A DNA stretch of 57,649 bases from Nostocales cyanobacterium. Lineage in GTDB: Bacteria; Cyanobacteriota; Cyanobacteriia; Cyanobacteriales; Nostocaceae. Of this stretch, positions 23,107 through 52,969 are shown piece after piece. The stretch lies in assembly GCA_004292695.1 (NCBI GenBank), contig RDXV01000010.1, forward strand, positions 1-57,649, in the 5' to 3' direction. The notes beneath the pieces were generated by a model. It made no database searches, was not told the DNA's origin, and saw nothing but the letters and a program-made list of their open reading frames with translations. Position 1 is the stretch's first letter. Each line of letters begins with the position of its first letter. The position numbers and the translations under genes are program-made.

Positions 23107-23607
<501 letters not shown>

Positions 23608-25367: not shown

Positions 25368-25421
25368 CCTGTAAATCCTAAAATCCTGGACATCCTGATT
25401 CAGACAAATACTGTATAATAC
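25368..25421 (+). promoter_or_regulatory. ~55-bp repeat module CCTGTAAATCCTAAAATCCTGGACATCCTGATTCAGACA with TGTATAAT extended -10
   Basis: One of five copies (25368, 35664, 53389 inverted, 55611, 56242); here ~40 bp upstream of a Uma2 gene. Confidence 0.6.
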
Positions 25422-25458
25422 TAATTAACCAAAATTTCTATATTGGGAGTAAAAAAAT

Positions 25459-26043: not shown

Positions 26044-26108
26044 AAGGATTCAGCTACAAGTAATCAGTTAATAAAAACAAGAATCAAGATTGATAACTAT
26101 ATTGTTTC

Positions 26109-26699: not shown

Positions 26700-26773
26700 G
26701 TTGGTTTTAATTATAGCAATAAAAAATAATAGATCCCCGAATTCTTTAATAACTTAGGGATCTTTATGTTTAA

Positions 26774-28369
26774 TTACTCTCGATTCATTCTAATCAAATC
26801 TGTTAAAATACTATCCAAACTCCCATTAACTTGAATCTTCTCAATCTTCTCCGCAATACGTTCTAAAACCTCCAATTCTTTTAATCTTAACGCCACAGGA
26901 TTATCTTCCATTACCTTAGCAGTATTTAACATACTCCTAGTAGCAGCAGTTTCTTCTCTGCGTCTGACAACATTTGCTTGAGCAGCTTTTTCTGCTTCTA
27001 CAACTTTACTCAAAATCTCCTTAATTTCCCCAGGTAAAATTATATCTTTTACCCCCACAGAATCAACTTCAATTCCATATTCAGACGCTTTTTGTCTAAT
27101 ATATTCTGAGATGCTTCTATCAATCGCTCCCTTATCTTCTAATAGTGCATCTAATGTTCTTTCTCCCACAGCACCGCGCAGAGCAAATTGCAATTCTTTG
27201 TACAAGAAACCTGTAATATCTGATAATCCATTTTTTGCTTTTAAGGGATCTTGAATGCGGAAACCAGCAGTTAAATTTAACCGCAAGGGTACTTTATCTT
27301 TAGATAAAATTTCTTGTCCAGAAACTTCCATATTTTGTAATCTTAAATCAATAGTTTCTGTCTTAAATGATCTGCCAAATATCCACCAAGCATTTACCCC
27401 CGGTTGTAATTGGGTTTGAAATTCTTGATTAATATATAATAATCCAATGTGTTGAGATGGAACTTGACAAATATGTACACAACTACGAATCAAGTTTTTT
27501 ACTTCTGTTGTTCCTTCCACCAATTCAGCAATTAATCGGGGTGATAATTTAGCATCTGTGCTAATATCAATTATTTCTACTTCTACACCTTGCAAAAATA
27601 ATTTTCTGCTTGTAGGTGGTAAAATTGCAATCACTTTTTTACGATATCTGACAACTGCTACCTGAAAATCTAAAAGTTCCACATTTTCACAATAAGCAGC
27701 AACAAATTCAGGATGTTTTTCAATTAAAATATCCTCTAAGGGAAAATCAGGATTAGGTAAAATGCGGCTAATTGTACGTACAGAAACATCTCTATCTATT
27801 GCCCAAAAAGCATATTCACCTTTTTCTAAAGGTTTTACAAAATTGTTCTGTAAATACAACAAACCAATCTCATATTCAGAAATTTGAAATTTTTTAATTC
27901 CATATAAACTAATTCCCCGCAATTGTTGGACAAATATATCGGGTAATTGCAAGGTTTCATCTAAGTTTAAAAAATGAGATTCTACCTCGATAAAACCTCG
28001 CCAAAATGCCCGCAATTGATTAGATCCAATACTTAACCAAGTTTGTCCCCAATGTACTAACGCTGTTTGATTAAATCCGGTTCTAATAATTAATAAATGT
28101 TCTTGAATTTCATTAGCGTGGGATGAACGCAATAATAATTCTAAGTTGTCAATTTCCGCTTCTGGTTCATTGAGATTATATATTCTTACGTTCCAATAAC
28201 GACCAAAATAAGTATATTCACCGGGTGATAATATTTTCTTAAAATCACTGCGGTGATATAAAATGCCAATTTCGTTAGGTTTGATGTAAAAATTTTTCCA
28301 CATAATACTTTGAATCAGTAATTTTATGGGTTGATACCACGAAAGCAATAGGTTTTTTGCACTTTTCAT
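26774..28369 (-). CDS. SPFH/band-7 domain protein with three tandem SPFH-like modules
   Basis: Three repeats each opening with E-IG(I/L)LY...PGE...W, and a C-terminal coiled-coil typical of stomatin/flotillin-like proteins. Confidence 0.55.
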   Translation of the reverse strand: MKSAKNLLLSWYQPIKLLIQSIMWKNFYIKPNEIGILYHRSDFKKILSPGEYTYFGRYWNVRIYNLNEPEAEIDNLELLLRSSHANEIQEHLLIIRTGFNQTALVHWGQTWLSIGSNQLRAFWRGFIEVESHFLNLDETLQLPDIFVQQLRGISLYGIKKFQISEYEIGLLYLQNNFVKPLEKGEYAFWAIDRDVSVRTISRILPNPDFPLEDILIEKHPEFVAAYCENVELLDFQVAVVRYRKKVIAILPPTSRKLFLQGVEVEIIDISTDAKLSPRLIAELVEGTTEVKNLIRSCVHICQVPSQHIGLLYINQEFQTQLQPGVNAWWIFGRSFKTETIDLRLQNMEVSGQEILSKDKVPLRLNLTAGFRIQDPLKAKNGLSDITGFLYKELQFALRGAVGERTLDALLEDKGAIDRSISEYIRQKASEYGIEVDSVGVKDIILPGEIKEILSKVVEAEKAAQANVVRRREETAATRSMLNTAKVMEDNPVALRLKELEVLERIAEKIEKIQVNGSLDSILTDLIRMNRE

Positions 28370-28689
28370 GATCTAAGTGACTTGTAATATTGCATATTAC
28401 AACTATAATAGAAAATTTTTTAAAACTCTGCAAGTGTATATTTTCACAGTGAATAGGTGGACAAAAGCTACTCAAAAACTGGATGAAGATAGTTATTTTC
28501 ACTGAAATACTTGGTAGTAATTCGGATCAAGATAACTAGCAGATATAGCGTTCATTTTGCTACTATTTGAAGGATATACTCAAGTTAGAGAGAAAGGCAG
28601 TTATGCAGACTTATTAACTGTTGCTATTAAACTTCACTCTAGCGAGTTAGGAATAATAGCGAAAAATATACACCACAGAGTTAGTGATA

Positions 28690-28770
28690 ATGCGGAGTCG
28701 AACCGCAGGATTTCTCCTTTACCATTTGCTACCTTAAAAGGGTAGTGTCCTTTAACCTGGACGAGGGCTG
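28690..28770 (-). pseudogene. degenerate tRNA-like remnant (UUU anticodon-arm-like, acceptor stem unpaired)
   Basis: Reverse complement shows a GTCC/GGAC D-stem, a CTACC-CTTTTAA-GGTAG anticodon arm and a GCGG-TTCGACT-CCGC T-arm, but no acceptor pairing. Confidence 0.35.
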
Positions 28771-28771
28771 G

Positions 28772-28861
28772 TTGAAAGTGTAGGATTTGAACCTACAAGC
28801 AGGATGTGAACCTGCAATTTGATCTTGAGTCAAACGCCTCTACCAATTGGGCTAACTTCCG
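28772..28861 (-). tRNA. tRNA-Leu(CAA)-like class II tRNA
   Basis: Manual fold of the reverse complement: acceptor CGGAAGT/ACTTTCA (6 of 7 pairs), 3-bp D-stem with a long D-loop, anticodon arm TTTGA-CTCAAGA-TCAAA (anticodon CAA), long variable hairpin GCAGG-TTCACAT-CCTGC, and T-arm GTAGG-TTCAAAT-CCTAC. Confidence 0.5.
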
Positions 28862-28863
28862 GG

Positions 28864-28935
28864 TTTTTGATACAGGATTTGAACCTGTTCACATTGATTG
28901 AGAGTCAACTGCTCTACCAATTGAGCTAATCAAAA
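28864..28935 (-). tRNA. tRNA-Glu(CUC)-like (atypical all-A/U acceptor stem)
   Basis: The reverse complement folds as a 72-nt cloverleaf: TTTTGAT TA GCTC AATTGGTA GAGC A GTTGA CTCTCAA TCAAT GTGA ACAGG TTCAAAT CCTGT ATCAAAA A. Confidence 0.45.
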
Positions 28936-29102
28936 GATAGCATAATCGGCGGTATACGCTAATACTACTGTATGGCGCACCAGTTAGGTATACAGAACCT
29001 AAGCTATAGCCCATTGTGCTGTAATAATTGTAGCATATTTACAAATGTAAAGGTAAGTGGAGTTAATTTATTTACTGTTTTATGGTGATACTACTATTGC
29101 TC

Positions 29103-29636
29103 CTAACATATTTTTTTCCACTCTTTTGCTTTTTTATCTATTTCTTGAATAAAACTGTCTTTACCATCCATATAACTATTGATATCGTGAGGATATTTTT
29201 TAGCTAGTTCACACTTTAAGTGACTATATTTATGTGCATCTTCTGGATGAGAAATCATGTAATCTCGAAATGCTAAATGGCGTTCTATTTGCACAGAACC
29301 AACTTCAAAAGCATGAAGATGATGTGTTCTAATTCCAGCTTGGTTGTGTTTACGGAAATAACGACGTTTTGGTATTCCAAACTCACCCATATTTTCATAA
29401 CCTAACAATTCTAATTGTACACTTTGTTGATCAATTTTATTAATGTCTTTCACTTCTAGTAAAATGTCTATAATTGGTTTAGCATGAATACCTTCAATCG
29501 CTGTACTACCAATGTGATATACTGCGATTAAATTCTCATCAAGTGCAATTTTCATCTTTTGTGCTTCCTCAAAAAATTCGTTTTTCCAGTTAGGGTTATG
29601 GGGAAATACTTCTACTTTCATATTTAGATTGTTCAT
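29103..29636 (-). CDS. GrpB-family nucleotidyltransferase-fold protein
   Basis: VYHIGSTAIEGIHAKPIIDILLEV typical of GrpB (UPF0157). Confidence 0.65.
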   Translation of the reverse strand: MNNLNMKVEVFPHNPNWKNEFFEEAQKMKIALDENLIAVYHIGSTAIEGIHAKPIIDILLEVKDINKIDQQSVQLELLGYENMGEFGIPKRRYFRKHNQAGIRTHHLHAFEVGSVQIERHLAFRDYMISHPEDAHKYSHLKCELAKKYPHDINSYMDGKDSFIQEIDKKAKEWKKIC

Positions 29637-29716
29637 GGATATCCATGTTTCAATTCAATGTTTTAATTTGGAGTTAAATTTTGGGGTTTGATAATTGAAA
29701 AACTAAATTTTCTTGG

Positions 29717-30997
29717 TTATTGGTAAATAGGAATTTGAATTGTAAATTTTGTACCTTTGCCAAAGGTTGAATCACAATTTAGTTTACCTCTATGTCTTTC
29801 AGTAACAATTTGATAACTAATAGACATTCCTATTCCTGTTCCTTTACCTACAGGTTTGGTGGTAAAAAAAGGATTCATTATGTTTTGTTTGATATCTTCT
29901 CTCATACCTATACCATTATCTGCAATAATAATTTCTACATATTGAGAATCTAAAAAGCTAGTTTTGATATTAATTACTCCTTGATAGTCTTCATTGGTTT
30001 CTCCTAATTTATAGTGATTTATATTTTGTTCTATAGCATCAATAGCATTGACTAAGATGTTCATAAATACTTGATTCATTTCTCCTGCATAGCACTCTAA
30101 TAATGGTAGTTTTCCATAATCTTTTACTACTTCAATATCCAATAAGCGATGTTTTAAGATCATTAATGTACTATCAATACCTTCATGGATATCTACGGAC
30201 TTAAATTCTGCTTCATCCATCCGGGAAAAAGTTCGTAATGATAAAACAATTTGTCGGATACGTTGAGTACCAACACTCATAGAGTTAATCATTTTTGGTA
30301 AATCTTCTTTGATGTATTCTAAATCAATTTCATCTATGAATTCTTGAATTTCTGCATGATCAGATGAATTATGTCTTTGATATAATTCAATCAGTTTTAT
30401 TAAGTTATTTGCGTAATCTTGGAAAGGTTCAATATTTCCATGTATAAAGTTTATGGGGTTATTAATTTCATGAGCTACTCCTGCTACTAATTGTCCCAAA
30501 CTTGACATTTTTTCAGAATGGATCATTTGAGTTTGAGTTGCTTTTAATTCTTGTAATGTTTTTTCTAAATCTTCTGCTTGTTGACGCAGTTTTGCTTCTA
30601 ATTTTTTACGATTATTAATATCTCTAGCTACTACAACTACACTATCCTCACCCATAGCGGCTATACTAGCTTCAAACCAAATTTCTTGATCAGCAATAGG
30701 TAAACTATATTCTATTTTTAAAGTTTTTTTGGTTGCAAGTGCTTCTTGAATACAAGAGAAAACACGATCTGCAAAATCTTGAGGTAGAACATCATGCATG
30801 GTTTTACCTAATATTTCCATAGGAGGTTTATATAGAGAAGGAGCGCTACTAGGGGCAATTTTTAAATATCTTCCTTCGGAACTTAAAACCAGAATTACAT
30901 CTTGAATTGCATTGAATAATGCTAACAATTCTATTTGAGAATTTGTCACTTCTGATGTATGGTGTTGAGATTCCATATCAACCGATTCTAAACTCAT
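29717..30997 (-). CDS. sensor histidine kinase (PAS - HisKA - HATPase_c)
   Basis: H-box AHEINNP and N/G1/G2 boxes (NAIDA, DNGIGM, GTGIGM); N-terminal PAS-like region; no transmembrane segments. Confidence 0.8.
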   Translation of the reverse strand: MSLESVDMESQHHTSEVTNSQIELLALFNAIQDVILVLSSEGRYLKIAPSSAPSLYKPPMEILGKTMHDVLPQDFADRVFSCIQEALATKKTLKIEYSLPIADQEIWFEASIAAMGEDSVVVVARDINNRKKLEAKLRQQAEDLEKTLQELKATQTQMIHSEKMSSLGQLVAGVAHEINNPINFIHGNIEPFQDYANNLIKLIELYQRHNSSDHAEIQEFIDEIDLEYIKEDLPKMINSMSVGTQRIRQIVLSLRTFSRMDEAEFKSVDIHEGIDSTLMILKHRLLDIEVVKDYGKLPLLECYAGEMNQVFMNILVNAIDAIEQNINHYKLGETNEDYQGVINIKTSFLDSQYVEIIIADNGIGMREDIKQNIMNPFFTTKPVGKGTGIGMSISYQIVTERHRGKLNCDSTFGKGTKFTIQIPIYQ

Positions 30998-31231
30998 AAT
31001 TTTTACCTTTTGATTAATACTTATGTAAAAATACTGTGGGGGTTTAATGAATCGAAATCTTGAGTTTTAATACTGTCAATTGTACACAGTGTCCTAATAA
31101 TATCACTTGTAAATATTACTAAAAATTTTTTCTCCAATCCTTTGCTTTTATATATATTTCTTTAATAACCCCATCTTTTCTATCCTGTTTACCAAGATTG
31201 TATTTCATAAAATATCCTCATCTATGATTGC

Positions 31232-31584
31232 CATTTATCCACTGTATCCATAGCATGATTTAACCATTGCTGATACCATTTTAGAAAGTCTTTTTGTACT
31301 GGTGATTTATGATCAAATTCCGGCAACCAACCCTCTCCAGCAACCCAGATTTTACCACATTGCTCACCACTAATAACTAATATCGTCATCCAACCACATC
31401 CTCGATGACTGACAGGAAAACAACCATTAAGAGGATAATCAGCTTCTATAAAATAATACTCATCTGTTTCTACATTTATTCTTCATTTATGTTTCTGTGA
31501 ACCAAAAACTGCATGATGAAATCGGGGATCTTTTTCTTGCAGTAGCGCTAATTTTTGGCGAATTTCTTGAAAAATGGCTCTCAT
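31232..31584 (-). pseudogene. frameshifted gene remnant (two ORF fragments)
   Basis: MRAIFQEIRQKLALLQEKDPRFHH...stop, then a shifted frame continuing ...GCGWMTILVISGEQCGKIWVAGEGWLPEFDHK...; no intact ORF. Confidence 0.4.
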
Positions 31585-31600
31585 TTTATTTTCTTTGCCT

Positions 31601-32179
31601 TTAATCAGGATAAGCTAAACCTGTGCGTGGATCACGAATATATAAACCTAGTGTTAAACTCCGCATCACTTCATCCCAAATAGGTGTTAATTGTTCTGCT
31701 TGATCCGCCCAATAATCAAAGGTGATTAAACACTGAATATTTGAACCTAAACCTACACAAATTCTAGAATATGCTTCTCTAGGTTCTGCTTGAGTGTCAA
31801 TAAATTTAATTTGTCCCCATATTATTTTGGCGGTTTGCCGTTTAACTTGAATTATTTCCCCTGTTTCTATGACATCTCTACTATCATCTTCAATGACTTT
31901 TTTTAAGGTACGTTTGAGGGGAAATAATGTCCAATCATTGGGGGGTAAATGATTATAGGAAACTTCTAAACAACAATCATCATCGGGGGGTTGTTTATCT
32001 CTAAATTTAAAGGATTTTTCTTGGGGTTCAAATACCCAATTTTGGGGAACGTTAAACCGTACTGCACCCCTACCCGCGACAAATATTTTATAATCTTCCG
32101 GTCCTTCCCAGTGATGGTTCGGATCTAATTCTAGGGTTTCTTTAATCCATTGCAGGTTATTTTTTTTACGTTTAGACAT
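31601..32179 (-). CDS. hypothetical protein
   Basis: 192-aa ORF with no family assignment. Confidence 0.4.
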   Translation of the reverse strand: MSKRKKNNLQWIKETLELDPNHHWEGPEDYKIFVAGRGAVRFNVPQNWVFEPQEKSFKFRDKQPPDDDCCLEVSYNHLPPNDWTLFPLKRTLKKVIEDDSRDVIETGEIIQVKRQTAKIIWGQIKFIDTQAEPREAYSRICVGLGSNIQCLITFDYWADQAEQLTPIWDEVMRSLTLGLYIRDPRTGLAYPD

Positions 32180-32528
32180 AGGTTACATTTTTGCTTTCTG
32201 TTTTTGATGCTACATTCCTATCATGATAGCTCAATGGTCAATTGAAATTCAATGCTGTATCATATAATAATATCTGAATTTTTCACATTTATCTTTACTT
32301 TATTGGTTATGCGGGAAGAACGCACTTTAAGGTTTAATTTAGAAAAGTTAATAAATTTGCGAGTGTTGATGTCTTGGAGATGATAAATAACGATAAAATA
32401 ATGAATATAATGGCGTAAAAAGTAGAAAAGAGATTTCCTAACTATGGAACATCTCTATATCTCTACAGCTAATAGCTAGTTATATTTAGTTTTACGAACT
32501 GATTATTTTCCTGATGAAACAGGTAATC

Positions 32529-33161
32529 TTAATCACTGTAGGGCAGGGAAGAATGGTGTGCAACAATACGAAGTTTGCCATCCTTATCTTTAACAAATTT
32601 CCAGGTTTTATCTACTGTAGTTACTTTACCATTTTTGTCAGTCATTGAGACATTACCCATTGTTGTAGCCACGCTACCAACGATGAAGATTCCAGCGTTG
32701 CGAACTTCCACCTTTCGCCATCCTTTGAGAGCAAAACCGGTATCATCAGGAAAAGAAGAATTGCCACCCACGAAATAGGACAATGCACCTTCCTTTGTTG
32801 TGCGGAAAGTGTTTGGTGCTTCTGCTAGAGTTGGTTTGAACAGCACTAATCCGTACTGATAACCATAGGCTTGATCTATAATCTGGCTGGCTAATGCCTT
32901 AGCTGCGGCTTTTCCCTGCTGATCGTGGGTGGTGGAAATAGCTACTAATGCGTCACCCCAGGCTTTTTGGGCTGCTAAGACTTCAGCCTCAGTGATAGTC
33001 ATGTTGACTACTGAAGTTTTGGGAGTTGATGAGGTTGAACTAATGATGATGTTATTAACTTCAGCATTGGCTATTGACGGAGCAGACGCTAATAAAGCTA
33101 TGGCGGTAGCAGTGACAGGAAGATTAATTTTCATATTTATAGAAGAAGTCATCATTAACAA
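32529..33161 (-). CDS. secreted hypothetical protein (signal peptide)
   Basis: The N-terminus ends in an ATAIALLASAPSIANA signal-peptide-like cleavage region. Confidence 0.5.
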   Translation of the reverse strand: MLMMTSSINMKINLPVTATAIALLASAPSIANAEVNNIIISSTSSTPKTSVVNMTITEAEVLAAQKAWGDALVAISTTHDQQGKAAAKALASQIIDQAYGYQYGLVLFKPTLAEAPNTFRTTKEGALSYFVGGNSSFPDDTGFALKGWRKVEVRNAGIFIVGSVATTMGNVSMTDKNGKVTTVDKTWKFVKDKDGKLRIVAHHSSLPYSD

Positions 33162-33538
33162 AACTTAATGAACACAGCAAACCAGATTAAATATCTGGTG
33201 AAAGTTATCGCAGAGATAATTTATAACTTTATCTCTACTATATCTATAGATGCCTATAGATGTTTATTGTTTCAATAAAATCTATTGAAATGTTAATACT
33301 TCTTACAAAGTGCAATAACATTTACTTATTGTTTGTTAGATAAAACTGATGGTTAGTTGTCACATCTTATAGAGAAGGTATTCCTTGTTAGGATTTATAC
33401 GCGCGTTAGAAAAGATAACGGTTCACGTAGCATTTCCCAGAAAGGGTATCACCCCTGGTGCTGCGCTCCGCGCGATCGCTCTCAATTCCATAATCTTCTT
33501 CACTCAGATCAAATAATTACAGCTAATTAAGGTTTGCA

Positions 33539-33958
33539 TTATTTTCTGGTTGGACACACTTCAAAAGCTAAATCTGCACGGTAAAAACACACATCAAACT
33601 CTAAAAAGAAGTTCATACGCCCTAATAATAAAGGTACATCATCAGATAAACACCAAGCAAAAACTAAGCGAACAGGCTCAAATGATCCAATATGAGCAGA
33701 TACCAGTAAACCTCTTGCCTCTACAGGTGCTAAATTACCAGCTAACATTACAGAAGTAGTTTGTTCTTCCCAAATTGCACCTAGCTCAATACCTACACTG
33801 TATGGCAGAACGTTAACACTTGCACCAGTATCCAATAAACCGGAAACATCCACTGATAAGTTACGATAAGTAAGTGTTAATGGTAACTTTGGTAAGGCAT
33901 CAGGTATACCAAAGGTATCATATCCTTCTGTAAAGGAAAATCTTTGAGGTTTATTCAT
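33539..33958 (-). CDS. retropepsin-like aspartic protease family protein
   Basis: LDTGASVNVLP active-site motif (D-T/S-G-A). Confidence 0.6.
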   Translation of the reverse strand: MNKPQRFSFTEGYDTFGIPDALPKLPLTLTYRNLSVDVSGLLDTGASVNVLPYSVGIELGAIWEEQTTSVMLAGNLAPVEARGLLVSAHIGSFEPVRLVFAWCLSDDVPLLLGRMNFFLEFDVCFYRADLAFEVCPTRK

Positions 33959-34175
33959 GTTCCTTTTGTTTATCAGCTTCTAGTAGTTGGGCAAGTTGAT
34001 GTGCTGCTGCATGAGAATTTAGCGGAGACACAATAGAATAAGTTGCTCCCTGTTCTAATGATGGTTCTTCATCTTTAGCTAATTCTGATACTAGAAACTG
34101 CATAACTTTTAGCTTATCTGCACGAGTTAAATTTCGCAGGGTGGGAAATAGTTCTATAGCGTTCATAATTGTCAT
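33951..34175 (-). CDS. hypothetical protein co-transcribed with the retropepsin-like gene
   Basis: 74 aa; stop overlaps the downstream start (ATGA). Confidence 0.4.
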   Translation of the reverse strand: MTIMNAIELFPTLRNLTRADKLKVMQFLVSELAKDEEPSLEQGATYSIVSPLNSHAAAHQLAQLLEADKQKEHE

Positions 34176-34386
34176 AGTAGAGAGAATTTCATATTTCTAT
34201 TTTTCCACAATTTTCATGATTTTGCGTTAGTGAAGCTTAATGTGCGATCTCATTTGTTATAAGTTAGTGGATTGTTTTGAGTTTTCTTGATTTTATCATT
34301 GGATATTTAGGATGAGGCGATCGCTCTTTGGGGTTTGGGGTTTAGGAGGTGCGATCGCATCCCCAAATTCCCCAAATGTAATCGAA

Positions 34387-34698
34387 CTATAGCGGCATGA
34401 ATAAGCGAGGAAAAGAACCTGATGGACAAAAAGCAACTAGGGTATCACCTTGTCCTATACCACCTGGAATTGATTTAGCTTGTGCATAAATAGTTGACCC
34501 ATCAATTTTTTGAACTATATGCAAGCCATTCTGAGCGTTGTAGCCTTGATACTTAACTACAAACCATTCTCTACGTTTATCAAACTCATCATTAATCCAT
34601 TGTTTTAACCGATGATTAGTTCTATTTATTTCAGCTTGCTGTTCAAGACGTTTTTCAGCATCATAGGAATTATAATCGTCATAGTTCATAACTATCAC
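34387..34698 (-). CDS. hypothetical protein
   Basis: 103-aa ORF. Confidence 0.4.
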   Translation of the reverse strand: MIVMNYDDYNSYDAEKRLEQQAEINRTNHRLKQWINDEFDKRREWFVVKYQGYNAQNGLHIVQKIDGSTIYAQAKSIPGGIGQGDTLVAFCPSGSFPRLFMPL

Positions 34699-34730
34699 CT
34701 ATTTTTTGCTAATAGTACAAATATATTGTA

Positions 34731-35495
34731 TTATTCTAGTTTTAGTAAGTCAAGTATTTGCAAAAACTTTCCGCCAAAATTATTACATTCCAATTTCCCC
34801 GGAAAACTTATTGGAACTGGAAAACTACTGGAAACTTTAGTAGTTGAACCAAGTTCTAATGAAATGAGTCCAACAGTGATGAAACCTTGAAGTAAATGCC
34901 AGTTTTGCTTTACTTGATGTTTTGAGTCAAGCATATCTGGATGAGACGAGAGATAAAAACCAGGTTGAGGGTGATATTTTTCTGAATAGTAAAATTCTCT
35001 GAGAATGATTAAGTTATTCAAATCAATATTTTGCAATATATAGGAATATTGGCTAAATTGCTGATAATTTATTTCATCTTTTATGTAGGCAATAAAAATT
35101 TTGCACAAAGCTTCTGCTTTAGAAACCTGGTCGAACATACTCAAGGCGTTAATGAGTTCCTCACCTAATTTTTGTTGAAATTCTGGATTCGTAGATTTAT
35201 CTTCTATATTTTTTTTAAATGTGTCATCAGCATCTTTACATCCTGATATGAATAAGAGTAGTTTTTTCATAAATAAGTAATCACGTACTGCAAAACCAGT
35301 TTTGATAAGTGAATAAAATGATTTAATGACTGGAATTTTACTAAAAGTTTCGTTTTGAATGTTTTCTAACAACTTATCATTCAATACTTCAGCTAAATTT
35401 AAAGCAGTATCTTTCATTCCTGCCTCAGATATAGTTTTTATTAGGGATGTTCCCAAAGATAAATCTTTTTCATTTTTTTTATTTTGGTTATTCAT
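34731..35495 (-). CDS. hypothetical protein, AT-rich gene
   Basis: 254 aa, K/N/I-rich; A+T content well above the neighbouring genes. Confidence 0.4.
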   Translation of the reverse strand: MNNQNKKNEKDLSLGTSLIKTISEAGMKDTALNLAEVLNDKLLENIQNETFSKIPVIKSFYSLIKTGFAVRDYLFMKKLLLFISGCKDADDTFKKNIEDKSTNPEFQQKLGEELINALSMFDQVSKAEALCKIFIAYIKDEINYQQFSQYSYILQNIDLNNLIILREFYYSEKYHPQPGFYLSSHPDMLDSKHQVKQNWHLLQGFITVGLISLELGSTTKVSSSFPVPISFPGKLECNNFGGKFLQILDLLKLE

Positions 35496-35663
35496 GTTCG
35501 TGTCAGCAATATTTTAATGATTATTTAGTGACTAAATTATAACATCTCAAAAATTATCCCTTAACAAAAATAAAATTACTTTATAAACTAAAGCTGCTAG
35601 TTATCTACTCCTAGCTGGTAATGGGTAATTACTGATAGATAGTAATGAAATTCCGGTTTTCAT

Positions 35664-35710
35664 CCTGTAAATCCTTAAATCCTGGACATCCTGATTCAGA
35701 CAGTTTCCCT
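35664..35710 (+). repeat. copy of the ~55-bp CCTGTAAATCCT(T/A)AAATCCTGGACATCCTGATTCAGACA module
   Basis: Sequence identity with the copies at 25368, 55611 and 56242. Confidence 0.6.
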
Positions 35711-35801
35711 AAATAGCAACTTACTGTATATATAAATATCTGTCTCCCAAAACCTATTTATCAGGTTGGGTTTCACCTAAATCCACCCAACCCACAGATA
35801 A

Positions 35802-36785
35802 TTAATTATCTCCTTGACTTGATGCTAACAACTGCTCAAAATCCTCCAACGAAGCAATAGTAATTGCCTGTTTAAAGATACTTTTTAGCAATTGCAAATC
35901 CTCCAGAGAATTAATCTGATTCTTCAACTCATCTGATACATTGCCAAATCTTGTTTCTAGAATTTCAATCACATTTTCACGGGAATTTTTGATCATCCCA
36001 TCAATTTCAAAGCTAGTTAAAAATGGCATACGTTTTCCCTCCTCATAACGGTTTAATTCAGTCTTGAAATCAGATTGCAGTATTGGGGGTAATGTCATCA
36101 TCCATTCAATAAACCGGAATAATTGACGAATCATTTCTCCGGTATAACCCAAGTCATAAAGTCGTTTCACTAGACTTAATTTTAACTGAAATCTTTGTTG
36201 TGAATTACCTTGAGTGGCTTGGGTTTGCAAATGTGCCATAATGATGATAGCAAAAGGATTATTACTTTGTGCTAGGGTATCATGGCTATAATCTAATAGT
36301 TTAACACTGGGAAATTGTAAATTAGTTGTAAACCCCCACTGACTATAACCATAAGATGCTGGTTTCCAATTGGGGTTATCATCTCCTAAAACCGCGAAAC
36401 TAAAAACTTTAAGACGATAGCGATCAAATAAACGATGATTATAAATATACATCCTTTCTGCAAAATCGTCTTGTTCTTGTCCTTGTATTTCTATGTGAAT
36501 CAGAACTAACGCTTTTTCTCCATTTCGCAGGGTGACTTTTACCAGTTTATCCGCTAAACGTCTTCCTGTTTCTGCATCTCTAATTAGTTCTTGTAATTCG
36601 GTGTCTAGGGTTTCATATCCTTTTTCCCAGTCAATATCTTGATAAACTTCAGGAAAACAGTATTCTATGAATTGTTCAAGATAAACTGTAATCGCTTCTT
36701 TCCATGCGCTGTCATAATCTGAGTTTGGTTGGTAGTTCATCCCTGGAAATATATGTTTTGATGTCTTGTAATTATAACATATCAA
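35802..36785 (-). CDS. Rpn/YhgA-like PD-(D/E)XK nuclease family transposase
   Basis: AWKEAI...LVLIHIEIQGQ...YIYNHRLF core plus a C-terminal DUF4351-like tail; related to ORF 52169..52969. Confidence 0.6.
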   Translation of the reverse strand: MICYNYKTSKHIFPGMNYQPNSDYDSAWKEAITVYLEQFIEYCFPEVYQDIDWEKGYETLDTELQELIRDAETGRRLADKLVKVTLRNGEKALVLIHIEIQGQEQDDFAERMYIYNHRLFDRYRLKVFSFAVLGDDNPNWKPASYGYSQWGFTTNLQFPSVKLLDYSHDTLAQSNNPFAIIIMAHLQTQATQGNSQQRFQLKLSLVKRLYDLGYTGEMIRQLFRFIEWMMTLPPILQSDFKTELNRYEEGKRMPFLTSFEIDGMIKNSRENVIEILETRFGNVSDELKNQINSLEDLQLLKSIFKQAITIASLEDFEQLLASSQGDN

Positions 36786-36788
36786 ATA

Positions 36789-38090
36789 CTAAAAACTACC
36801 TTTATAAACCATTTCCATTTTTAACTTTTCTAACTCCATCTTCAACCTTTCATTCTCCAATTTTAAAACCAAATTCTCATCTTTAATCACCTCAACCTCA
36901 TTCCGTTTACTCAAAGCCTGATTTATTGCCAACTTCCGCATATCCAAAGAAAACCAACGTTGATAAGTTTTCGTGTGAATCTGTACACTATGACCTAAAT
37001 TATCTGCTGCTGCTTTAATCGGAATCCCTAAAATGTGCGCTCTAATTGCCCAACCATGACGCAAATCATAGGGTTTAAAATCTAAGCCAATTTTTCTAAA
37101 CCACCAGCTAACTCTTTGAATTAAAGCTGTAATTTCTGCATGATTATTTTTATCTTTTTTATTAATTGCTTCTACCAACATTTCTAAATACTGGGGATTT
37201 CTTAAATCAAATTCCTCAATCCATTCTTTATATAAAGGTAATGCTTCCCTTTCTCCCGTTTTACAATCTTTATCAACCTTCCATGTTAAATCTAAATTTT
37301 CCTTACTTAACCACCAATTAACATCAGGATTGATAAATAATTCACGGGGACGTAAACCGAAAACTGCTAACATTCCATACACCCAACGCCACAGTAACCA
37401 GCTATCTTTTACCTCATAATTAACTTGTTTACCTCGATTATTTTCGTATTCCTCAAATTTATAAAAACCTGCTACTATTTCTTTATCTGTAGGAACATTT
37501 CTAGAGTTAGTTTCCGGTGTTTTAGCATAGTTAGTTAAGTTAATTTCAATCTTGAAAAGTTGACAAAATACAGAAATAGCTCTTACAGCATTATATCTTG
37601 CCCATTCTTTATCTATTTTCTCGATTGCATGAATAAAATTGTCCCCAATTGCTAAATCATCAGCTTTGGTATAACGTTTAATTCTGGTATAATAATAAAA
37701 GAAAGTATGCTCACTTTTTGTTGTGCGTTTATGGGTTTTAAAATATTCAATTTCAAACTTTTCTAATAATTTCCCAATAGTTGCTACATCGTTTTTTATC
37801 TCTTCCTTCCCTAAATATTTCTCATTCCAAACAAAGGTTTTCCTAGCAATTAATTTTCCTAATTCATAAGCTTCTTCCTCTGCGGTTTTTAAACCCTCCA
37901 AATTAGCAGGAATGTTTAAACTGATGTTGTATTGTTTTTTACCTAATTTTTTTATATCTGCATCACCCGGTTTAATAGGTAAAGTTGCCCTTAATTGCAG
38001 ACATCCATTTGATTCTCGAATTGTTACCCTCGTCTTTGCAGACTTCAAACGCAGATTTACCTGTTGTATTTGTGTTAAGTTAGTTTTCAT
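36789..38090 (-). CDS. xisA: XisA-family site-specific tyrosine recombinase (nifD element)
   Basis: 433 aa; shares LQLRATLPIKPGD...YNISLNIPAN...TAEEEAYELGKLIARK and a C-terminal RHGWAIRAHILGIPIKAAADNLGHSVQIHTKTYQRWF with the other two XisA-like ORFs. Confidence 0.85.
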   Translation of the reverse strand: MKTNLTQIQQVNLRLKSAKTRVTIRESNGCLQLRATLPIKPGDADIKKLGKKQYNISLNIPANLEGLKTAEEEAYELGKLIARKTFVWNEKYLGKEEIKNDVATIGKLLEKFEIEYFKTHKRTTKSEHTFFYYYTRIKRYTKADDLAIGDNFIHAIEKIDKEWARYNAVRAISVFCQLFKIEINLTNYAKTPETNSRNVPTDKEIVAGFYKFEEYENNRGKQVNYEVKDSWLLWRWVYGMLAVFGLRPRELFINPDVNWWLSKENLDLTWKVDKDCKTGEREALPLYKEWIEEFDLRNPQYLEMLVEAINKKDKNNHAEITALIQRVSWWFRKIGLDFKPYDLRHGWAIRAHILGIPIKAAADNLGHSVQIHTKTYQRWFSLDMRKLAINQALSKRNEVEVIKDENLVLKLENERLKMELEKLKMEMVYKGSF

Positions 38091-38254
38091 CTTGGGTTAT
38101 GCGATCGCCTAGCGTACTGAAAGCATTCTGATCAAAATAAACAATAAAAATTAATTCAAAACCCCAATTCATAGATTTTGAATCTTAGCTTTTTAATTGT
38201 TGATCTAGACTATACTTAAACCCAAAATAAATATGTTAAATATAAACAGTATTT

Positions 38255-38905
38255 TTATTCCCAATAATTTTCCCAGTCATTGTTAAAAGATTCCTTCAAT
38301 CTTTGCAAATAAGCATAAGTTTTAATTTTCACCATCCAAAGATTATCATAATTATCCCCTCCTTTACAAATAACACCTTCATTCACACCATATTTCCCCT
38401 GACGCACATCATGAATAAATTGCCCTGTCAACTTACCACAATAAACAACCCGTGCAATATTAAAATCCCGAAAATCATTAATAAAATGTTCAGTTGTAAC
38501 AATACCTTGCTCAGTTTGTACATCAAATAATACAAGTTTTTTAGGATCATCATGTTTGTGCATCCCCGCAAAAGAATTAACTCCAAAAAACTCAGTAAAA
38601 ACAGTAATTTCAGGACATTGATAATTTGGATGTTGTAAAAATAAACTTGCTAAATTTTTAGCAAAATCTCTGATAAAAATACCAGGTGCATCTTCTAAAC
38701 CTGGATGTGCTGCATTAAATTCCGCAATACCCAGATCATCTAAATTAAACCTATCACGGCGTGTACCAAAAGCATACCAACCTAGCTCAAATTCCCAAAC
38801 CCAATGTAGATTAGTACCATCATATTTTTCAAAAGCAATACATTTTTGCCAAGGACAATCTTTACTATCAGGAATTTTCGGATAAGCAAGTTTAACTTTT
38901 ACCAT
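38255..38905 (-). CDS. ATP-dependent RNA/DNA ligase-like nucleotidyltransferase
   Basis: Covalent nucleotidyltransferase motifs: KYDGTN (motif I), FTEFFG (III), LFDV (IV), EGVICKG (V). Confidence 0.55.
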   Translation of the reverse strand: MVKVKLAYPKIPDSKDCPWQKCIAFEKYDGTNLHWVWEFELGWYAFGTRRDRFNLDDLGIAEFNAAHPGLEDAPGIFIRDFAKNLASLFLQHPNYQCPEITVFTEFFGVNSFAGMHKHDDPKKLVLFDVQTEQGIVTTEHFINDFRDFNIARVVYCGKLTGQFIHDVRQGKYGVNEGVICKGGDNYDNLWMVKIKTYAYLQRLKESFNNDWENYWE

Positions 38906-39029
38906 TTTGGGTTGTTTATTTTATATAAATTATCTCCTCTTATGGTGCGGGCATCTTAGCAGCCAAATGTATGTGTCCATCACCACAATCAATCAACAAT
39001 ATATCCTGTAAATCCTCAAATCACAGTTA

Positions 39030-39060
39030 GATCCCCGACTTCTTAAAGAAGTCGGGGATC
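39030..39060. repeat. perfect 31-bp palindrome GATCCCCGACTTC-TTAAA-GAAGTCGGGGATC
   Basis: Same 13-bp arms as the mini-elements at 9288 and 51203; lies 30 bp inside the right border of the nifD element. Confidence 0.85.
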
Positions 39061-39097
39061 TGGAAAAAACCATTAAACCATCAATAAAAATACTCCG

Positions 39098-39453: not shown

Positions 39454-39933
39454 ATGCCTCAGAATCCAGAAAATATTAAAGACCACGTTGAGCTATTCCG
39501 CCAACCAGAATACCAACAACTATTCCAAAACAAGAAAGAATTTGAAAACGCTCACACTACTGAAGAAGTAGAAAGAGTAGCAGAATGGACAAAGTCCTGG
39601 GAATATCGTGAAAAGAACTTCGCTCGTGAAGCTCTCACCGTTAACCCCGCTAAAGGTTGTCAGCCTTTAGGTGCTATGCTTGCGGCTGTTGGTTTTGAAG
39701 GCACTCTTCCCTTCGTGCAAGGTTCTCAAGGTTGCGTTGCTTACTTCCGTACACACTTAACCCGTCACTTCAAAGAACCATTCTCCGGTGTTTCTTCTTC
39801 CATGACAGAAGACGCTGCTGTGTTTGGTGGTCTGCAAAACATGATTGATGGTTTGGCTAACTCCTACACTCTCTACAAGCCAAAAATGATCGCTGTTTGC
39901 ACCACCTGTATGGCGGAAGTTATCGGTGATGAC
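39454..39933 (+). CDS. nifK: nitrogenase MoFe protein beta NifK, 5' segment (codons 1-160), interrupted
   Basis: [15 protein letters not shown]...[12 protein letters not shown], then the divergent tail HLNLLEYL and a stop at 39960. Confidence 0.9.
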
Positions 39934-40163
39934 CACTTGAATTTGCTTGAATATTTGTAGCTCTAATATTTTAATTTTTCAGTGAATTAGTTTGATTAAT
40001 TTTTGCTTCTATTTCAGGTACAATATCCAGTTTTATCAAGCTATAAACTCTAAAATATTTGATTATTTTTTTATTAAATGAGTGAAAGAAACTTATGCTT
40101 GAAAAATAAAAGAGAGATTTTTAAATATATCCCTGAAATTCAGTATTGAATATAGCAAAAACT

Positions 40164-40205
40164 AAATTAATAAATTAATAAATTAATAAATTAATAAATT
40201 AATTT
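40164..40205. repeat. tandem 8-mer (TAAATTAA)x5
   Basis: Immediately 3' of the recombinase stop inside the nifK element. Confidence 0.8.
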
Positions 40206-41587
40206 TTTAACACTTCTGCTATTTGATGCTTCGCTAACAATTCTTTTAGTTTTTCATTTTCTGCCTTCAATTTTACTATTTCCTCTTTTAGTTCATTTAA
40301 TTCATCTTTTTTTTCTACCGCTTGTTTAATAGCTTTTTTTCGGTTTTCTAAACCAAACCATCTTTGATAAGTGTCTGTATGTTGTTGTACAGAATGACCA
40401 AGATTATCTGCTGCTGCTTTAATTGGCACTCCCATTAAATGCGCTCTAATTGCCCAAGCGTGACGTAAATCATAAGGTGAAAAACCTAAATCAACTTTCT
40501 GAAACCAGTCAGATAAAGCAGCACTTAACGTGTGCATACTTTTTGTATCATCACGTCCATTGATATAATTTTTCACCAATTTAACAATTTCAGGATTTTT
40601 CAGATCAAATAAATCTATCCATGAGTCATATAATGGTAATGCTTCTCTATCACCAGTTTTACACAATTCATGAACTTTCCAAGTTCTATTTTCAGACAAC
40701 CAATGATTAAAGTCAGGATATAAAAAAAGCTCTCTAGGACGACAACCATAAGCGGCTAACATTCCATAAAACCATCTAAAAACTAACCAGTAATCTGCTT
40801 GTTCTTGTCTTTTGTTACGTCTATTAATTGCGTATATTTCCCATTTATAAAAACCTGTCTCAATGGTGGATTCATCAGGAACTTTACGAGCTTTAGGTTT
40901 AGGACGTTTAAATTTTAAAATTAAAGGAATATTAAATTCTTTACAGAATAAATTTAGAGCTATACAAGTGCGATGTTTCCAACTAGGAGTATTATTAGAT
41001 AAAGAATCAAATTGTTTTTTAATATTTTCTGGAGTTGCTAACATATCCCGATCAAATTGATTTAACACACCGAGATAATTTTTAAAAAATGTCCCTTCAG
41101 ACTTAATATTTCTTTGCCTAGAGCTAAAATATATATGTTCATAATTATCTAATAATTCACCAAAGGTTTTCTCTGTTTTGTCCTGCTTATTACCTAAATA
41201 CTTCTGATTCCATTGAAACTGCTGTCTAGCAATTAATTTTCCTAATTCATTCGCTTCTTCTTCCGCAGTTTTTAAACCATAAAAATTAGCAGGTATTCCT
41301 AAAGAGATTTTATATTGTTTTTTGCCGTTTCCCTTAGTATCAATATCGTTAGGTTTGAGAGGTAATGTTGCTTGCAGATATAAACTACCAGCTACTTTCA
41401 CTATAGAGACTCGTGACTTAGCTGCTTTTAACCGTGAATTAACTTCTTTGAGTGCAACATCAAATTGAAGGTCAGTATGAGCAGCTTGTTTTTCCAAATG
41501 TTTCATAGTTCCCATGTATGTACCGTCTGTAGTGGCAGTTTTGACGGTAGATGCTTGATAACCCTTGTGTAGCTTGGTTTTTGGCAT
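40199..41587 (-). CDS. xisA: XisA-family site-specific tyrosine recombinase (nifK element)
   Basis: 462 aa with a C-terminal RHAWAIRAHLMGVPIKAAADNLGHSVQQHTDTYQRWF. Confidence 0.85.
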   Translation of the reverse strand: MPKTKLHKGYQASTVKTATTDGTYMGTMKHLEKQAAHTDLQFDVALKEVNSRLKAAKSRVSIVKVAGSLYLQATLPLKPNDIDTKGNGKKQYKISLGIPANFYGLKTAEEEANELGKLIARQQFQWNQKYLGNKQDKTEKTFGELLDNYEHIYFSSRQRNIKSEGTFFKNYLGVLNQFDRDMLATPENIKKQFDSLSNNTPSWKHRTCIALNLFCKEFNIPLILKFKRPKPKARKVPDESTIETGFYKWEIYAINRRNKRQEQADYWLVFRWFYGMLAAYGCRPRELFLYPDFNHWLSENRTWKVHELCKTGDREALPLYDSWIDLFDLKNPEIVKLVKNYINGRDDTKSMHTLSAALSDWFQKVDLGFSPYDLRHAWAIRAHLMGVPIKAAADNLGHSVQQHTDTYQRWFGLENRKKAIKQAVEKKDELNELKEEIVKLKAENEKLKELLAKHQIAEVLKN

Positions 41588-41740
41588 TGCTTATTTTTTA
41601 CTTAAATACCATGAAACTTTGAAAGTAAAAATACTGCTGTTTACCAGAAACCCTTTTTAGGTAGTTCCAATAACAACAGTATTTCTGTAAGTTCACAATA
41701 CCATGAACAACCACGTATAACAGATATTTTCGGTGATGAC

Positions 41741-42796
41741 TTAGGTGCATTCATTACCAACGCTAAAAACGCTGGTTCTGTTCCTAAAGATTTACCAGTT
41801 CCCTTCGCTCATACTCCTAGCTTCGTAGGTTCTCACATCACCGGTTACGACAACATGATGAAGGGAATTCTTTCTACCTTAACAGCAGGTAAAAAGAAAT
41901 CCTCCAGCAATGGCAAAATCAACTTCATGCCTGGTTTTGATACCTACTCAGAAAACACCCGCGAATTAAAGCGGATTGCTTCTTTAATGGGTATTGACTA
42001 CACAGTTCTTTCTGACACCAGTGACTATGTTGACTCACCTAACGATGGTGAATTCAATATGTATCCCGGTGGTACTAAGTTAGAAGATGCAGCAGATTCC
42101 ATCAACGCTAAAGCTACCGTTGCTCTGCAATCTTACTCCTTGACCAAAACTTGCGAATACATCGCTAAGGAATGGAACCAAGACGTTTGTGTTTCTCGTC
42201 CTTGGGGTATCAAAGGAACTGACGAATTCTTAATGAAAGTCAGCGAATTGACTGGTAAAGCAATTCCTGAAGAATTAGAAATCGAACGTGGTCGTGCAGT
42301 TGACGCAATGACCGACTCCCACGCTTGGGTACATGGTAAGCGCTTCGCTATCTACGGTGATCCTGACCTAGTTTACAGTGTAGTTAGCTTCATGTTGGAA
42401 TTAGGCGCTGAACCTGTACACATTTTGGTTCACAACACCAACAAAGAATTTGAAAAAGAATTGCAAACTCTCTTAGATTCTAGCGAATTTGGTAAAGACG
42501 CTAAAATCTGGGGTGGTAAGGACTTGTGGCACTTACGTTCCTTGTTATTCACCGAACCCGTAGACTTATTAATCGGTAACTCCTACGGTAAGTACCTGTG
42601 GCGTGATTGTGGTGTACCCTTAGTAAGAATCGGTTATCCCATCATGGACCGTCACCACTACCACCGCTATGCAACCATCGGTTACAAAGGTGTAATCAAC
42701 TTGTTGAACTGGGTTGTTAACACAATCTTTGAAGAAATTGACCGCAACACCAACGTTGCTGGTAAGACCGATATTTCTTACGACTTAGTACGCTAA
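41741..42796 (+). CDS. nifK: NifK 3' segment (codons 161-511)
   Basis: LGAFITNAKNAGSVPKDLPVPFAHTPSFVGSHITGYDNMMKGIL...; in frame with 39454..39933 after element removal. Confidence 0.9.
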   Translation, partial: LGAFITNAKNAGSVPKDLPVPFAHTPSFVGSHITGYDNMMKGILSTLTAGKKKSSSNGKINFMPGFDTYSENTRELKRIASLMGIDYTVLSDTSDYVDSPNDGEFNMYPGGTKLEDAADSINAKATVALQSYSLTKTCEYIAKEWNQDVCVSRPWGIKGTDEFLMKVSELTGKAIPEELEIERGRAVDAMTDSHAWVHGKRFAIYGDPDLVYSVVSFMLELGAEPVHILVHNTNKEFEKELQTLLDSSEFGKDAKIWGGKDLWHLRSLLFTEPVDLLIGNSYGKYLWRDCGVPLVRIGYPIMDRHHYHRYATIGYKGVINLLNWVVNTIFEEIDRNTNVAGKTDISYDLVR

Positions 42797-52168: not shown

Positions 52169-52969
52169 TTAAGATTTTTGAATTTCTTGTTGTAAAGTTT
52201 GCACTTCTTCAACAGATAATTCTGTGACTTCAGCAATTTGTTCTAAACTCATTACTCCCATTCTTAACAAGTTTAAAGCTAACTTTCTGGTTGTTTCCGC
52301 TTTACCTTCGGCCTTACCTTCGGCTCTACCTTTGGCTTCACCTTCTTCTAGGATTTCTTGATAAATGACTGATTCGCGCATAATCTCACTCCTGAATATT
52401 TTCCTAATTACATCTTTGTTTAACACTAGACCGGCTAAAACGCTACTAGCAGCAGCTATATTTCTTTGTAACCTTTGTTCTGTGATTCCTTCTACTGCTT
52501 TTGCTACTTGGGTTAATACCATTGTAGGATCATTTGTCTGAGTCAGCGCCGCGAAGGGTAATAAACCGGGAACTGTCAAAAATTGTTCTGTAGGTTGTTC
52601 CCATAAGCGGATAACTTCAAATTGATGGTAAGTGTTTTCTAATTTGAAGTTGTTTTCATAGACTAATTCTGACCCTGTTTTTCGCAAATAGATGACTATT
52701 TGACGCATTTTTTTATGAGGAAACCGACGATATCCCCTAACTCGATAATCTAACGTCCGAAAAGGCATATCTTTATCTGTGTCGGTTTGAAATTCGATAT
52801 GTAGAACTAATTCATCTGATTGTAATAAGATTAATGAATCAGCGCGAATTGGTTCGTTTGATAATTCTGTGGGGCTAAGTTCTGTTAATTTAACTGGTGA
52901 ACCTAGTAACCATGTAGCTAAGTCGTCTTTGAAGTTTTCGGCTAAGAATTTGCAGATGTTGTCATACAT
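52169..52969 (-). CDS. Rpn-family recombination-promoting nuclease/putative transposase
   Basis: PD-(D/E)XK core (DSLILLQSDELVLHIEFQ) plus a C-terminal DUF4351-like tail with a (GKAE)n repeat. Confidence 0.6.
   Translation of the reverse strand: MYDNICKFLAENFKDDLATWLLGSPVKLTELSPTELSNEPIRADSLILLQSDELVLHIEFQTDTDKDMPFRTLDYRVRGYRRFPHKKMRQIVIYLRKTGSELVYENNFKLENTYHQFEVIRLWEQPTEQFLTVPGLLPFAALTQTNDPTMVLTQVAKAVEGITEQRLQRNIAAASSVLAGLVLNKDVIRKIFRSEIMRESVIYQEILEEGEAKGRAEGKAEGKAETTRKLALNLLRMGVMSLEQIAEVTELSVEEVQTLQQEIQKS

Follow-up and report, generated by a model that had tools for sequence, protein, structure and literature searches.

A 1.8-kb element splits nifK and carries a single recombinase gene

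We analysed a 57.6-kb stretch of DNA from a metagenome-assembled genome (MAG) of a Nostocales cyanobacterium (contig RDXV01000010.1, hereafter the window), in which the nitrogenase gene nifK is split at nucleotide (nt) 470 by an element of 1,807 bp (Table 1). The element is bounded by an exact 11-bp direct repeat, TCGGTGATGAC, of which the window holds exactly two copies, spaced 1,807 bp apart. As called in the window, the open reading frame (ORF) of the interrupted 5' part of nifK continues into the element and ends at a stop codon at position 39960. Joining the two nifK parts in silico, with a single repeat copy retained, gave an uninterrupted NifK of 511 amino acids (aa) plus stop codon, which shares 91% identity with the uninterrupted NifK found in Raphidiopsis. 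The G+C content of the element is 30%, as compared with 43–45% for nifK and 35% for the window as a whole.

Since exact repeats of 10–11 nt are not rare in the AT-rich 2-kb stretch, where we found several, the significance of TCGGTGATGAC lies in its position at both break points and in the restoration of the reading frame. In a test with 2,000 shuffles, we observed no shared 11-mer between two 60-nt segments at the nifK break points.

The sole ORF of at least 100 aa inside the element encodes a recombinase of 462 aa and lies antisense to nifK. The original prediction had described the nifK interruption as essentially an XisA-like recombinase plus its sites, which is correct, and the main features it listed are all present. 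Its 11-bp direct repeats are exact, and the fivefold repeat that it mentioned is the TAAATTAA array of 5.1 copies; its estimate of about 150 bp of flank on each side was replaced by 142 bp 5' and 265 bp 3' of the recombinase gene. We also considered shorter ORFs. One of 65 aa is antisense within the recombinase gene, one of 50 aa (41598..41750) is unconserved, its ATG being ACG in the Cuspidothrix relative, and those of 21–29 aa in the recombinase-distal arm lie in unconserved sequence; we rejected the 50-aa ORF and the small distal-arm ORFs as genes for their lack of conservation. The recombinase gene is the only credible one in the element. An Rfam scan of positions 39400–42200 found no known RNA family, only a sub-threshold DnaX match inside the coding region.

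Table 1. Positions of the nifK element, its parts and the two other elements of the nif cluster
Feature	Position in window	Strand	Remarks
nifK 5' part, codons 1–160, including left repeat copy at its end	39454..39933	+	tblastn, translation
AAGTTA, left half-site of near-palindromic target	39917..39922	+	
Left direct repeat TCGGTGATGAC	39923..39933		First 7 bp, TCGGTGA, are the core of all same-orientation relatives
Recombinase-distal arm, 265 bp	39934..40198	-	19.6% G+C; poorly conserved
TAAATTAA microsatellite, 5.1 copies	40163..40203		100% matches; overlaps recombinase stop codon
xis gene, 462-aa XisA/XisC-family tyrosine recombinase	40199..41587	-	Pfam, identity, catalytic residues, structural model
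Recombinase-proximal arm, 142 bp	41588..41729	-	Conserved; length and Jukes-Cantor distance among relatives
AATACCATGAA copy 1 (TTCATGGTATT on recombinase strand)	41605..41615	-	Exact 11-nt direct repeat, in conserved block
AAATAC, arm of inverted pair	41629..41634		Invariant in all nine aligned arms
GTAGTTCCAATAAC, GT-N10-AC site, weak NtcA-like	41661..41674		Alignment of nine arms
GTATTT, partner arm of inverted pair	41679..41684		
AATACCATGAA copy 2 (TTCATGGTATT on recombinase strand)	41697..41707	-	In conserved block
Right direct repeat TCGGTGATGAC	41730..41740		
TGACTT, right half-site of near-palindromic target	41737..41742	+	
nifK 3' part, codon 161 to stop	41741..42796	+	
nifH element, 6,732 bp	16413..23154		Repeat CCGTGAAGGT at 16413 and 23145; XisA-like gene 21614..23035 (-), 109 bp from edge
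nifD element, 13,990 bp	25101..39097		Repeat TACTCCG at 25101 and 39091; xisA 36789..38090 (-)

The recombinase belongs to the XisA/XisC family and is under purifying selection

Precomputed Pfam matches to the exact protein were XisAC_N (PF27551), XisAC_2nd (PF27132) and a weak Phage_integrase; in our own hmmscan, with a model set that apparently lacks the two new XisAC families, Phage_integrase scored 26.1 bits, just under the cut-off of 27.1, and an NCBIfam search returned no match above the cut-off, only faint XerA-type ones. The recombinase is 50% and 47% identical to the recombinases of the nifD and nifH elements, respectively, in the same window. In a protein search, it fell into a sharply separated clade with identities of 60–94%, the other listed XisA-like proteins being at most 51% identical to it. 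Residues R283, Y372-D-L-R375, H398 and Y407 are invariant among 46 family sequences and line up with the HxxR and GHS...Y motifs in XerA (4a8e); a tyrosine in place of the first catalytic histidine is a reported peculiarity of XisA and XisC (PMC3466309). In its domain set, its catalytic signature and the restoration of the frame on joining at short repeats, the element is of the XisA/XisC type. Pairwise ratios of nonsynonymous to synonymous divergence (dN/dS) were 0.09–0.18 among six elements with dS of 0.5–1.9, indicating purifying selection on the recombinase.

In an AlphaFold model (predicted local distance difference test score, pLDDT, 84.6), the core-binding and catalytic domains match those of XerA, IntI, Tn1549 Int, XerH and Cre. 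The model adds an extra N-terminal domain, composed of a helix, a three-stranded sheet and a helix, and a C-terminal helix of 49 residues. This predicted helix comprises residues 413–461 (positions 40202–40348 of the window) and has weak bZIP and coiled-coil-like Pfam matches; two of its residues, L440 and E443, show conservation throughout the XisA family. Going by the model, it may be an oligomerisation element that is absent from the matching solved tyrosine recombinases.

Elements of one lineage occupy the same nifK site in other Nostocales

We fetched the loci of related recombinases and mapped the nifK halves and repeats for each. At least nine other elements, of 1,787–2,031 bp, lie at the same nifK site in other Nostocales. 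As in the window, the recombinase gene runs antisense to nifK in a Cuspidothrix MAG (1,823 bp), Okeanomitos TIOX110 (1,816 bp), Sphaerospermopsis SIO1G2 (2,020 bp), a Nostocaceae MAG (1,855 bp), a Calothrix MAG (1,945 bp) and the Logan contigs L092 (1,787 bp) and L090 (1,789 bp). It is co-oriented with nifK in Anabaena sp. 4-3 (2,031 bp), Gloeotrichia GP01 (1,949 bp) and the larger element of Nostoc PCC 7524 (5.6 kb). The closest of these nifK-470 elements are those of Cuspidothrix, Sphaerospermopsis, Okeanomitos and Calothrix; Calothrix sp. NIES-3974 also has a protein in the 90%-identity cluster of the Calothrix MAG recombinase. The nifK halves of the window are 87–97% identical at the amino acid level to those of four of five same-orientation relatives, and 71–81% identical to those of the fifth, which is more distant. 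Judged by their sequences, the nifK-470 elements are a conserved lineage. Because so many elements of about 1.8–2.0 kb lie at this site, the minimal form is the rule here and not a peculiarity of the window contig.

A tyrosine recombinase element at this site has been published, namely the 5.618-kb nifK-469 element of Nostoc PCC 7524, with the repeat ATCGGTGA and the tyrosine recombinase Nos7524_1209 (Hilton, Meeks & Zehr 2016, PMC4874684, Table B). Hilton et al. (2016) assign elements to one variant if they share the same ortholog and lie within 10 bp of each other; the repeat in the window starts at nt 470 and its recombinase clusters with Nos7524_1209. The two elements share the target gene and insertion point (nt 469 with ATCGGTGA there, nt 470 with TCGGTGATGAC here), an orthologous tyrosine recombinase of the same distinct clade (60% identity) and a homologous arm of about 140 bp between core and start codon. 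By contrast, the PCC 7524 element is 5.6 kb long and has cargo, including a Rep_trans gene, whereas the window element has none; and in PCC 7524 the recombinase gene opens the element and is co-oriented with nifK, whereas in the window it closes the element and is antisense, the whole element being inverted on its target. The window element is an inverted, cargo-free member of the published nifK-469 variant.

The Rep_trans gene of the PCC 7524 element (CP003552.1) encodes a rolling-circle replication initiator and occupies positions 11824–12864 of that locus. Its presence in the 5.6-kb relative hints that the lineage derives from a small plasmid-like integrative element, of which the 1.8-kb forms would be reduced versions. 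In a literature search we found no paper that describes the present element, be it in Sphaerospermopsis, Cuspidothrix or Aphanizomenon, and Uesaka et al. (2024) mention Calothrix NIES-3974 for nifE only.

The core site is nearly palindromic and sister elements lie in both orientations

The shortest repeat common to the same-orientation elements is TCGGTGA; the 11 bp in the window consist of this 7-bp core and four more matching bases, and repeat lengths across genomes range from 7 to 11 bp. The core varies between genomes (TCGGTGA, TTGGTGA, TTGGGGA), but in each of nine genomes the two copies agree exactly, which points to selection for identical overlap regions. In the restored target, AAGTTA-TCGGTGA-TGACTT, 14 of 19 positions are self-complementary, as are 7 of 8 in the arms. 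This layout fits the core site of a tyrosine recombinase, with the two half-sites as putative binding sites.

The proximal arm abuts ...ATCACCGA in one orientation group and ...AT(C/T)GG(T/G)GA in the other. It follows that the element as a whole is inverted on a nearly symmetric target, and the near-palindromic target would explain why sister elements occur in both orientations. Hilton et al. (2016; PMC4874684) recorded orientation differences for nifD-895, nifD-227 and flv3B, leaving target symmetry undiscussed.

The similarity of the two repeat copies in the window extends upstream of the core: GTATGGCGGAAGTTA (39908–39933) and GTATAACAGATATTT (41715–41740) are identical at 20 of 26 positions. 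At the right junction, the side inside the element thus looks like the nifK side at the left one, in line with paired binding sites of the core type.

The recombinase-proximal arm is constrained and the distal arm is not

The proximal arm is exactly 142 bp long in five of six same-orientation relatives and 145 bp in the sixth, with no other insertions or deletions. For the five closer relatives, its Jukes-Cantor distance to the window is 0.16–0.22 as against a dS of 0.50–0.76; the arm thus evolves three to four times more slowly than synonymous sites. It is also conserved in the relatives of opposite orientation. This degree of conservation makes it probable that the arm contains a promoter and accessory binding sites.

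Both copies of AATACCATGAA lie in conserved blocks of the arm, which also holds the inverted pair AAATAC/GTATTT and conserved TATTTT and TATTTA hexamers. The GT and AC of the GT-N10-AC site GTAGTTCCAATAAC are retained in seven of nine aligned arms, with a variable interior, and an NtcA-like function for this site is speculative. We found no perfect NtcA site (GTAN8TAC) in the proximal arm, and the number of such sites in the window is that expected by chance. Folded as a single RNA sequence, the arm of the window forms a hairpin (z = -2.7). The consensus of nine sequences is weak (-6 kcal/mol, with a positive covariation term and almost no covariation), and we rejected a conserved RNA hairpin. 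Because the stretch between AAATAC and GTATTT shows so little covariation, we favour paired protein-binding motifs over a conserved hairpin, and the conserved blocks are best read as putative protein-binding sites and a promoter.

The distal arm varies from 269 to 485 bp in the relatives and could be aligned only by force, with many gaps and a Jukes-Cantor distance of about 0.7, which is similar to dS. On this comparison it is essentially unconstrained. The TAAATTAA array is missing from the Logan contigs L090, L091 and L092, whose recombinases belong to the same 90%-identity cluster, indicating that it is strain-specific and not part of the excision machinery. Distal arm and array alike would have little or no function.

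Two further features of the distal arm concern individual sequences. Three short-read Logan contigs with an identical recombinase (L001, L003 and L004) end inside the TAAATTAA array, probably because the 41-nt array exceeds k = 31. The distal arm of Sphaerospermopsis sp. SIO1G2 is about 200 bp longer than those of the other elements and has G+C-rich inverted and direct repeats, such as GGGCAAACCCCTTGTGGTTGCCCAGG; the extra sequence looks like the insertion of a small repeat element.

Programmed excision is the most probable explanation

We consider it highly probable that the interruption is a developmentally excised element of the XisA/XisC class, reduced to a recombinase gene and two arms; its host is probably a planktonic heterocystous member of the Nostocales. 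Expression of the recombinase would fall in the late phase of heterocyst differentiation and be driven by a promoter within the conserved 142-bp arm, and the protein would bind both core copies and probably also accessory sites in that arm. Strand exchange would then occur within the 7-bp overlap TCGGTGA, yielding an intact nifK (...AEVIGDDL...) and a non-replicating circle of 1,807 bp. The sequence outcome of this exchange can be read from the joined DNA: the restored nifK would have the junction ...GAAGTTATCGGTGATGACTTAGG... and the circle the junction ...GATATTTTCGGTGATGACCACTTG.... Purifying selection on the recombinase, co-variation of the cores and the intactness of the two nifK halves lend indirect support to excision.

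One public assembly bears on the existence of an element-free allele. Logan contig L090 (SRR24999971; 1,838 bp) consists of the element, bordered on either side by exactly 11 nt of core and a further 19 nt from nifK. Logan contigs are built such that all 31-mers are distinct (PMC12424806). The contig thus ends k-1 = 30 nt beyond the element on both sides, as expected if uninterrupted nifK occurs in the same reads, which is a hint of an element-free nifK allele in that sample.

Several observations weigh against programmed excision. Excision has so far been observed neither for the window element nor for any other nifK-470 element. A co-occurring strain without the element would produce the same contig ends in L090; the Logan contigs L001 and L092 pass through the junctions unbroken; and the k-1 signature is confined to one sample, with L092 spanning the whole element and L093 breaking elsewhere. 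The exact restored NifK is absent from a collection of 15 billion proteins, and a search of JGI metagenome contigs for the restored and circle junctions, with N at strain-variable positions, returned no match to either. We identified no promoter, there being no sigma-70-like site on the minus strand of positions 41588–41740, and the NtcA-like site is imperfect and lies 27 nt from the conserved TATTTT instead of the canonical 22.

The lack of direct evidence for excision, together with the absence of restored NifK and of both product junctions from the collections searched, is also what would be seen if the element were a dead relic that no longer excises and nifK a permanently disrupted pseudogene. 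We regard this as very unlikely: the recombinase has kept an intact ORF that is under purifying selection, the two repeat copies match exactly and change together from genome to genome, and the nifK halves are both undamaged, in frame and close in sequence to those of most relatives. Moreover, the other nif genes are intact (nifH after joining, nifD as full-length fragments), and the same arrangement recurs across genera at a dS of up to 1.9. A recently mobile insertion, such as an insertion sequence or integrative element, would likewise be small, AT-rich relative to nifK and flanked by short direct repeats, which would then be a target-site duplication and not a recombination core; the plasmid-like ancestry to which the Rep_trans gene of the PCC 7524 relative hints would also fit. 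We found no transposase domain, however, and no terminal inverted repeats among the reported repeat pairs. The element occupies an identical site in at least 11 genomes or contigs, its recombinase diverging along with them, and a repeat of 7–11 bp at one site points to chance extension of the 7-bp core rather than to a duplication of fixed length. An insertion of this kind is therefore very unlikely as well.

The original prediction had named an assembly artefact at the repeat copies as a result that would overturn it, and the window is indeed a contig of a MAG. Nevertheless, an identical recombinase gene is present in four other independent contigs, which come from a second NCBI MAG and from three SRA runs; in three of the four contigs, its junction with the 3' part of nifK is included. 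In addition, Logan contig L092 covers both nifK-element junctions, and homologous elements are found in the finished genomes CP150886.1, CP170511.1 and CP003552.1. The chance of an artefact is accordingly negligible, and programmed excision remains our preferred explanation.

We also put forward, tentatively and as a proposal that we ourselves doubt, that the nifK-470 elements might be excision cassettes minimised by nature, in which the recombinase needs in cis no more than the 7-bp overlap with the near-palindromic sequence around it and the 142-bp arm, which would combine a heterocyst-specific promoter with accessory sites. The distal arm would then be dispensable and either orientation would serve, the symmetry of the target permitting one recombinase lineage to insert and excise both ways round. 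If this is true, no defined substrate for developmental recombination of the XisA type would be more compact.

The recombinase gene more likely has its own promoter than depends on its surroundings

The lack of a consensus promoter upstream of the recombinase gene had been noted in the original prediction, and our search of the minus strand of 41588–41740 bore this out. Heterocyst-specific promoters often have no consensus -35 box, and for a gene under heterocyst regulation the missing sigma-70 match argues only weakly against a promoter. From the same lack, it had been suggested that expression depends on read-through or on signals in the adjoining nifK coding sequence. A start codon merely 142 bp from nifK would be compatible with such a promoterless gene, and in the co-oriented sisters (Anabaena sp. 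4-3, Gloeotrichia and Nostoc PCC 7524), where the gene lies about 130 bp past the break, transcription from the nifHDK promoter could physically read through into it. In the window, however, read-through is unlikely because the gene is antisense to nifK: for about 10 kb upstream, its strand holds only sequence antisense to nifK, to nifE and to other plus-strand ORFs, and not until 52169..52969 does another minus-strand ORF of at least 100 aa follow. Dependence on the nifK flank is unlikely because the 142-bp arm is conserved whichever nifK half lies beyond the core, including in the opposite-orientation sisters that face the other half. The arm is, in addition, clearly constrained and retains its TATTTT and TATTTA hexamers. 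Overall, we consider a promoterless gene unlikely, and a promoter inside the conserved 142-bp arm more likely than expression by read-through or from the nifK flank.

Comparison with known excision elements

The value of the nifK element as a uniquely minimal system had been overstated in the original prediction, given that, besides the nifK-site tyrosine element, six recombinase-only tyrosine-type elements of 1.67–1.91 kb have been published for nifD, nifH, nifB and hupS (PMC4874684). These are nifD-896 (1.669 kb) and nifD-227 (1.75 kb) of Calothrix PCC 7103; hupS-610 (1.828 kb), nifB-170 (1.868 kb) and nifD-227 (1.735 kb) of Rivularia PCC 7116; and nifH-92 (1.906 kb) of Calothrix desertica (PMC4874684). 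The window element resembles them, as far as the published table allows comparison, in its size class, its one tyrosine recombinase gene close to an edge (96–120 bp in the six), its short direct repeats and its low G+C content, and differs from them in target gene and core. In most tyrosine-type elements of the same table, the distance from gene to site is 96–150 bp, the gene being antisense at the element's end or sense at its beginning (PMC4874684). The recombinase gene of the window, antisense and at the element end, lies 142 bp from the core.

The 11-kb nifD element of Anabaena/Nostoc sp. PCC 7120 and its XisA are of the same family, the window recombinase being about 47–48% identical to XisA-type proteins. 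Both elements have an 11-bp direct repeat and an antisense recombinase gene at the end (about 118 bp from the edge in PCC 7120), and in both recombinases a tyrosine replaces the first catalytic histidine. Unlike the window element, the PCC 7120 element carries many cargo genes, its target is nifD nt 1353 with the core GGATTACTCCG, and its excision in heterocysts has been demonstrated experimentally, where that of the window element is predicted. Lambda-Int-type heterobivalent integrases have a similar three-part architecture, going by our model (extra N-terminal, core-binding and catalytic domains), and the arm adjoining the core, about 140 bp long, conserved and rich in repeated motifs, may be a further likeness. 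By contrast, the window element has no excisionase or accessory gene, and we did not match the long C-terminal helix (413–461) of its recombinase to lambda Int.

The XisF-like nifK-1277 elements of Calothrix, Rivularia and Microchaete also interrupt nifK and are assumed to be excised in heterocysts. They differ from the window element in having a serine recombinase, repeats of 3–5 bp and lengths of 29–85 kb, and in lying about 800 nt further downstream. Gloeotrichia echinulata GP01 has both types (9849–18669 of its locus); its nifK is interrupted twice, at nt 470 and near codon 425, the second element encoding a serine recombinase with Resolvase, Recombinase and Zn_ribbon_recom domains. Both types apparently also coexist in Logan contig L093 (SRR11785053), in which a tyrosine-type gene and a serine-recombinase gene flank a 3' nifK fragment, suggesting a doubly interrupted nifK as in Gloeotrichia GP01.

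Nothing here is new in principle: heterocyst excision elements, a tyrosine element at the nifK site and recombinase-only elements below 2 kb have all been published. The practical value lies in the comparative set of about a dozen elements of roughly 1.8–2.0 kb at one site and in two orientations. This set separates what is constrained (recombinase gene, 142-bp arm and 7-bp core) from what is not (distal arm and microsatellite), and it narrows down how a minimal substrate for excision should be designed as well as the search for promoter and binding sites in the poorly understood regulation of xisA-type genes.

Three structural nif genes are interrupted in the window

The nif cluster of the window comprises nifB (11147..12826), nifH, nifD and nifK, followed downstream of nifK by a nifE-like Oxidored_nitro gene. 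The three structural genes nifH, nifD and nifK are each interrupted. The insertion sites in nifH and nifD are those of the published variants nifH-429 and nifD-1357, which are types typical of heterocystous strains. With the nifH element joined out, the rest of the cluster is intact, and full-length fragments of nifD lie on both sides of the repeat. For the annotation of metagenome bins from bloom-forming Nostocales, the breaks in nifH, nifD and nifK of the window should be read as programmed splits and not as signs of pseudogenes.

Both other elements carry cargo. That of the nifH element includes, among others, a methyltransferase (20866..21564) and a DUF3368 protein (18637..19122). The nifD element has an extra 216-aa ORF (38255..38905) between xisA and the edge, and its cargo includes two Uma2-family genes, an SPFH/Band 7 protein and a PAS histidine kinase.

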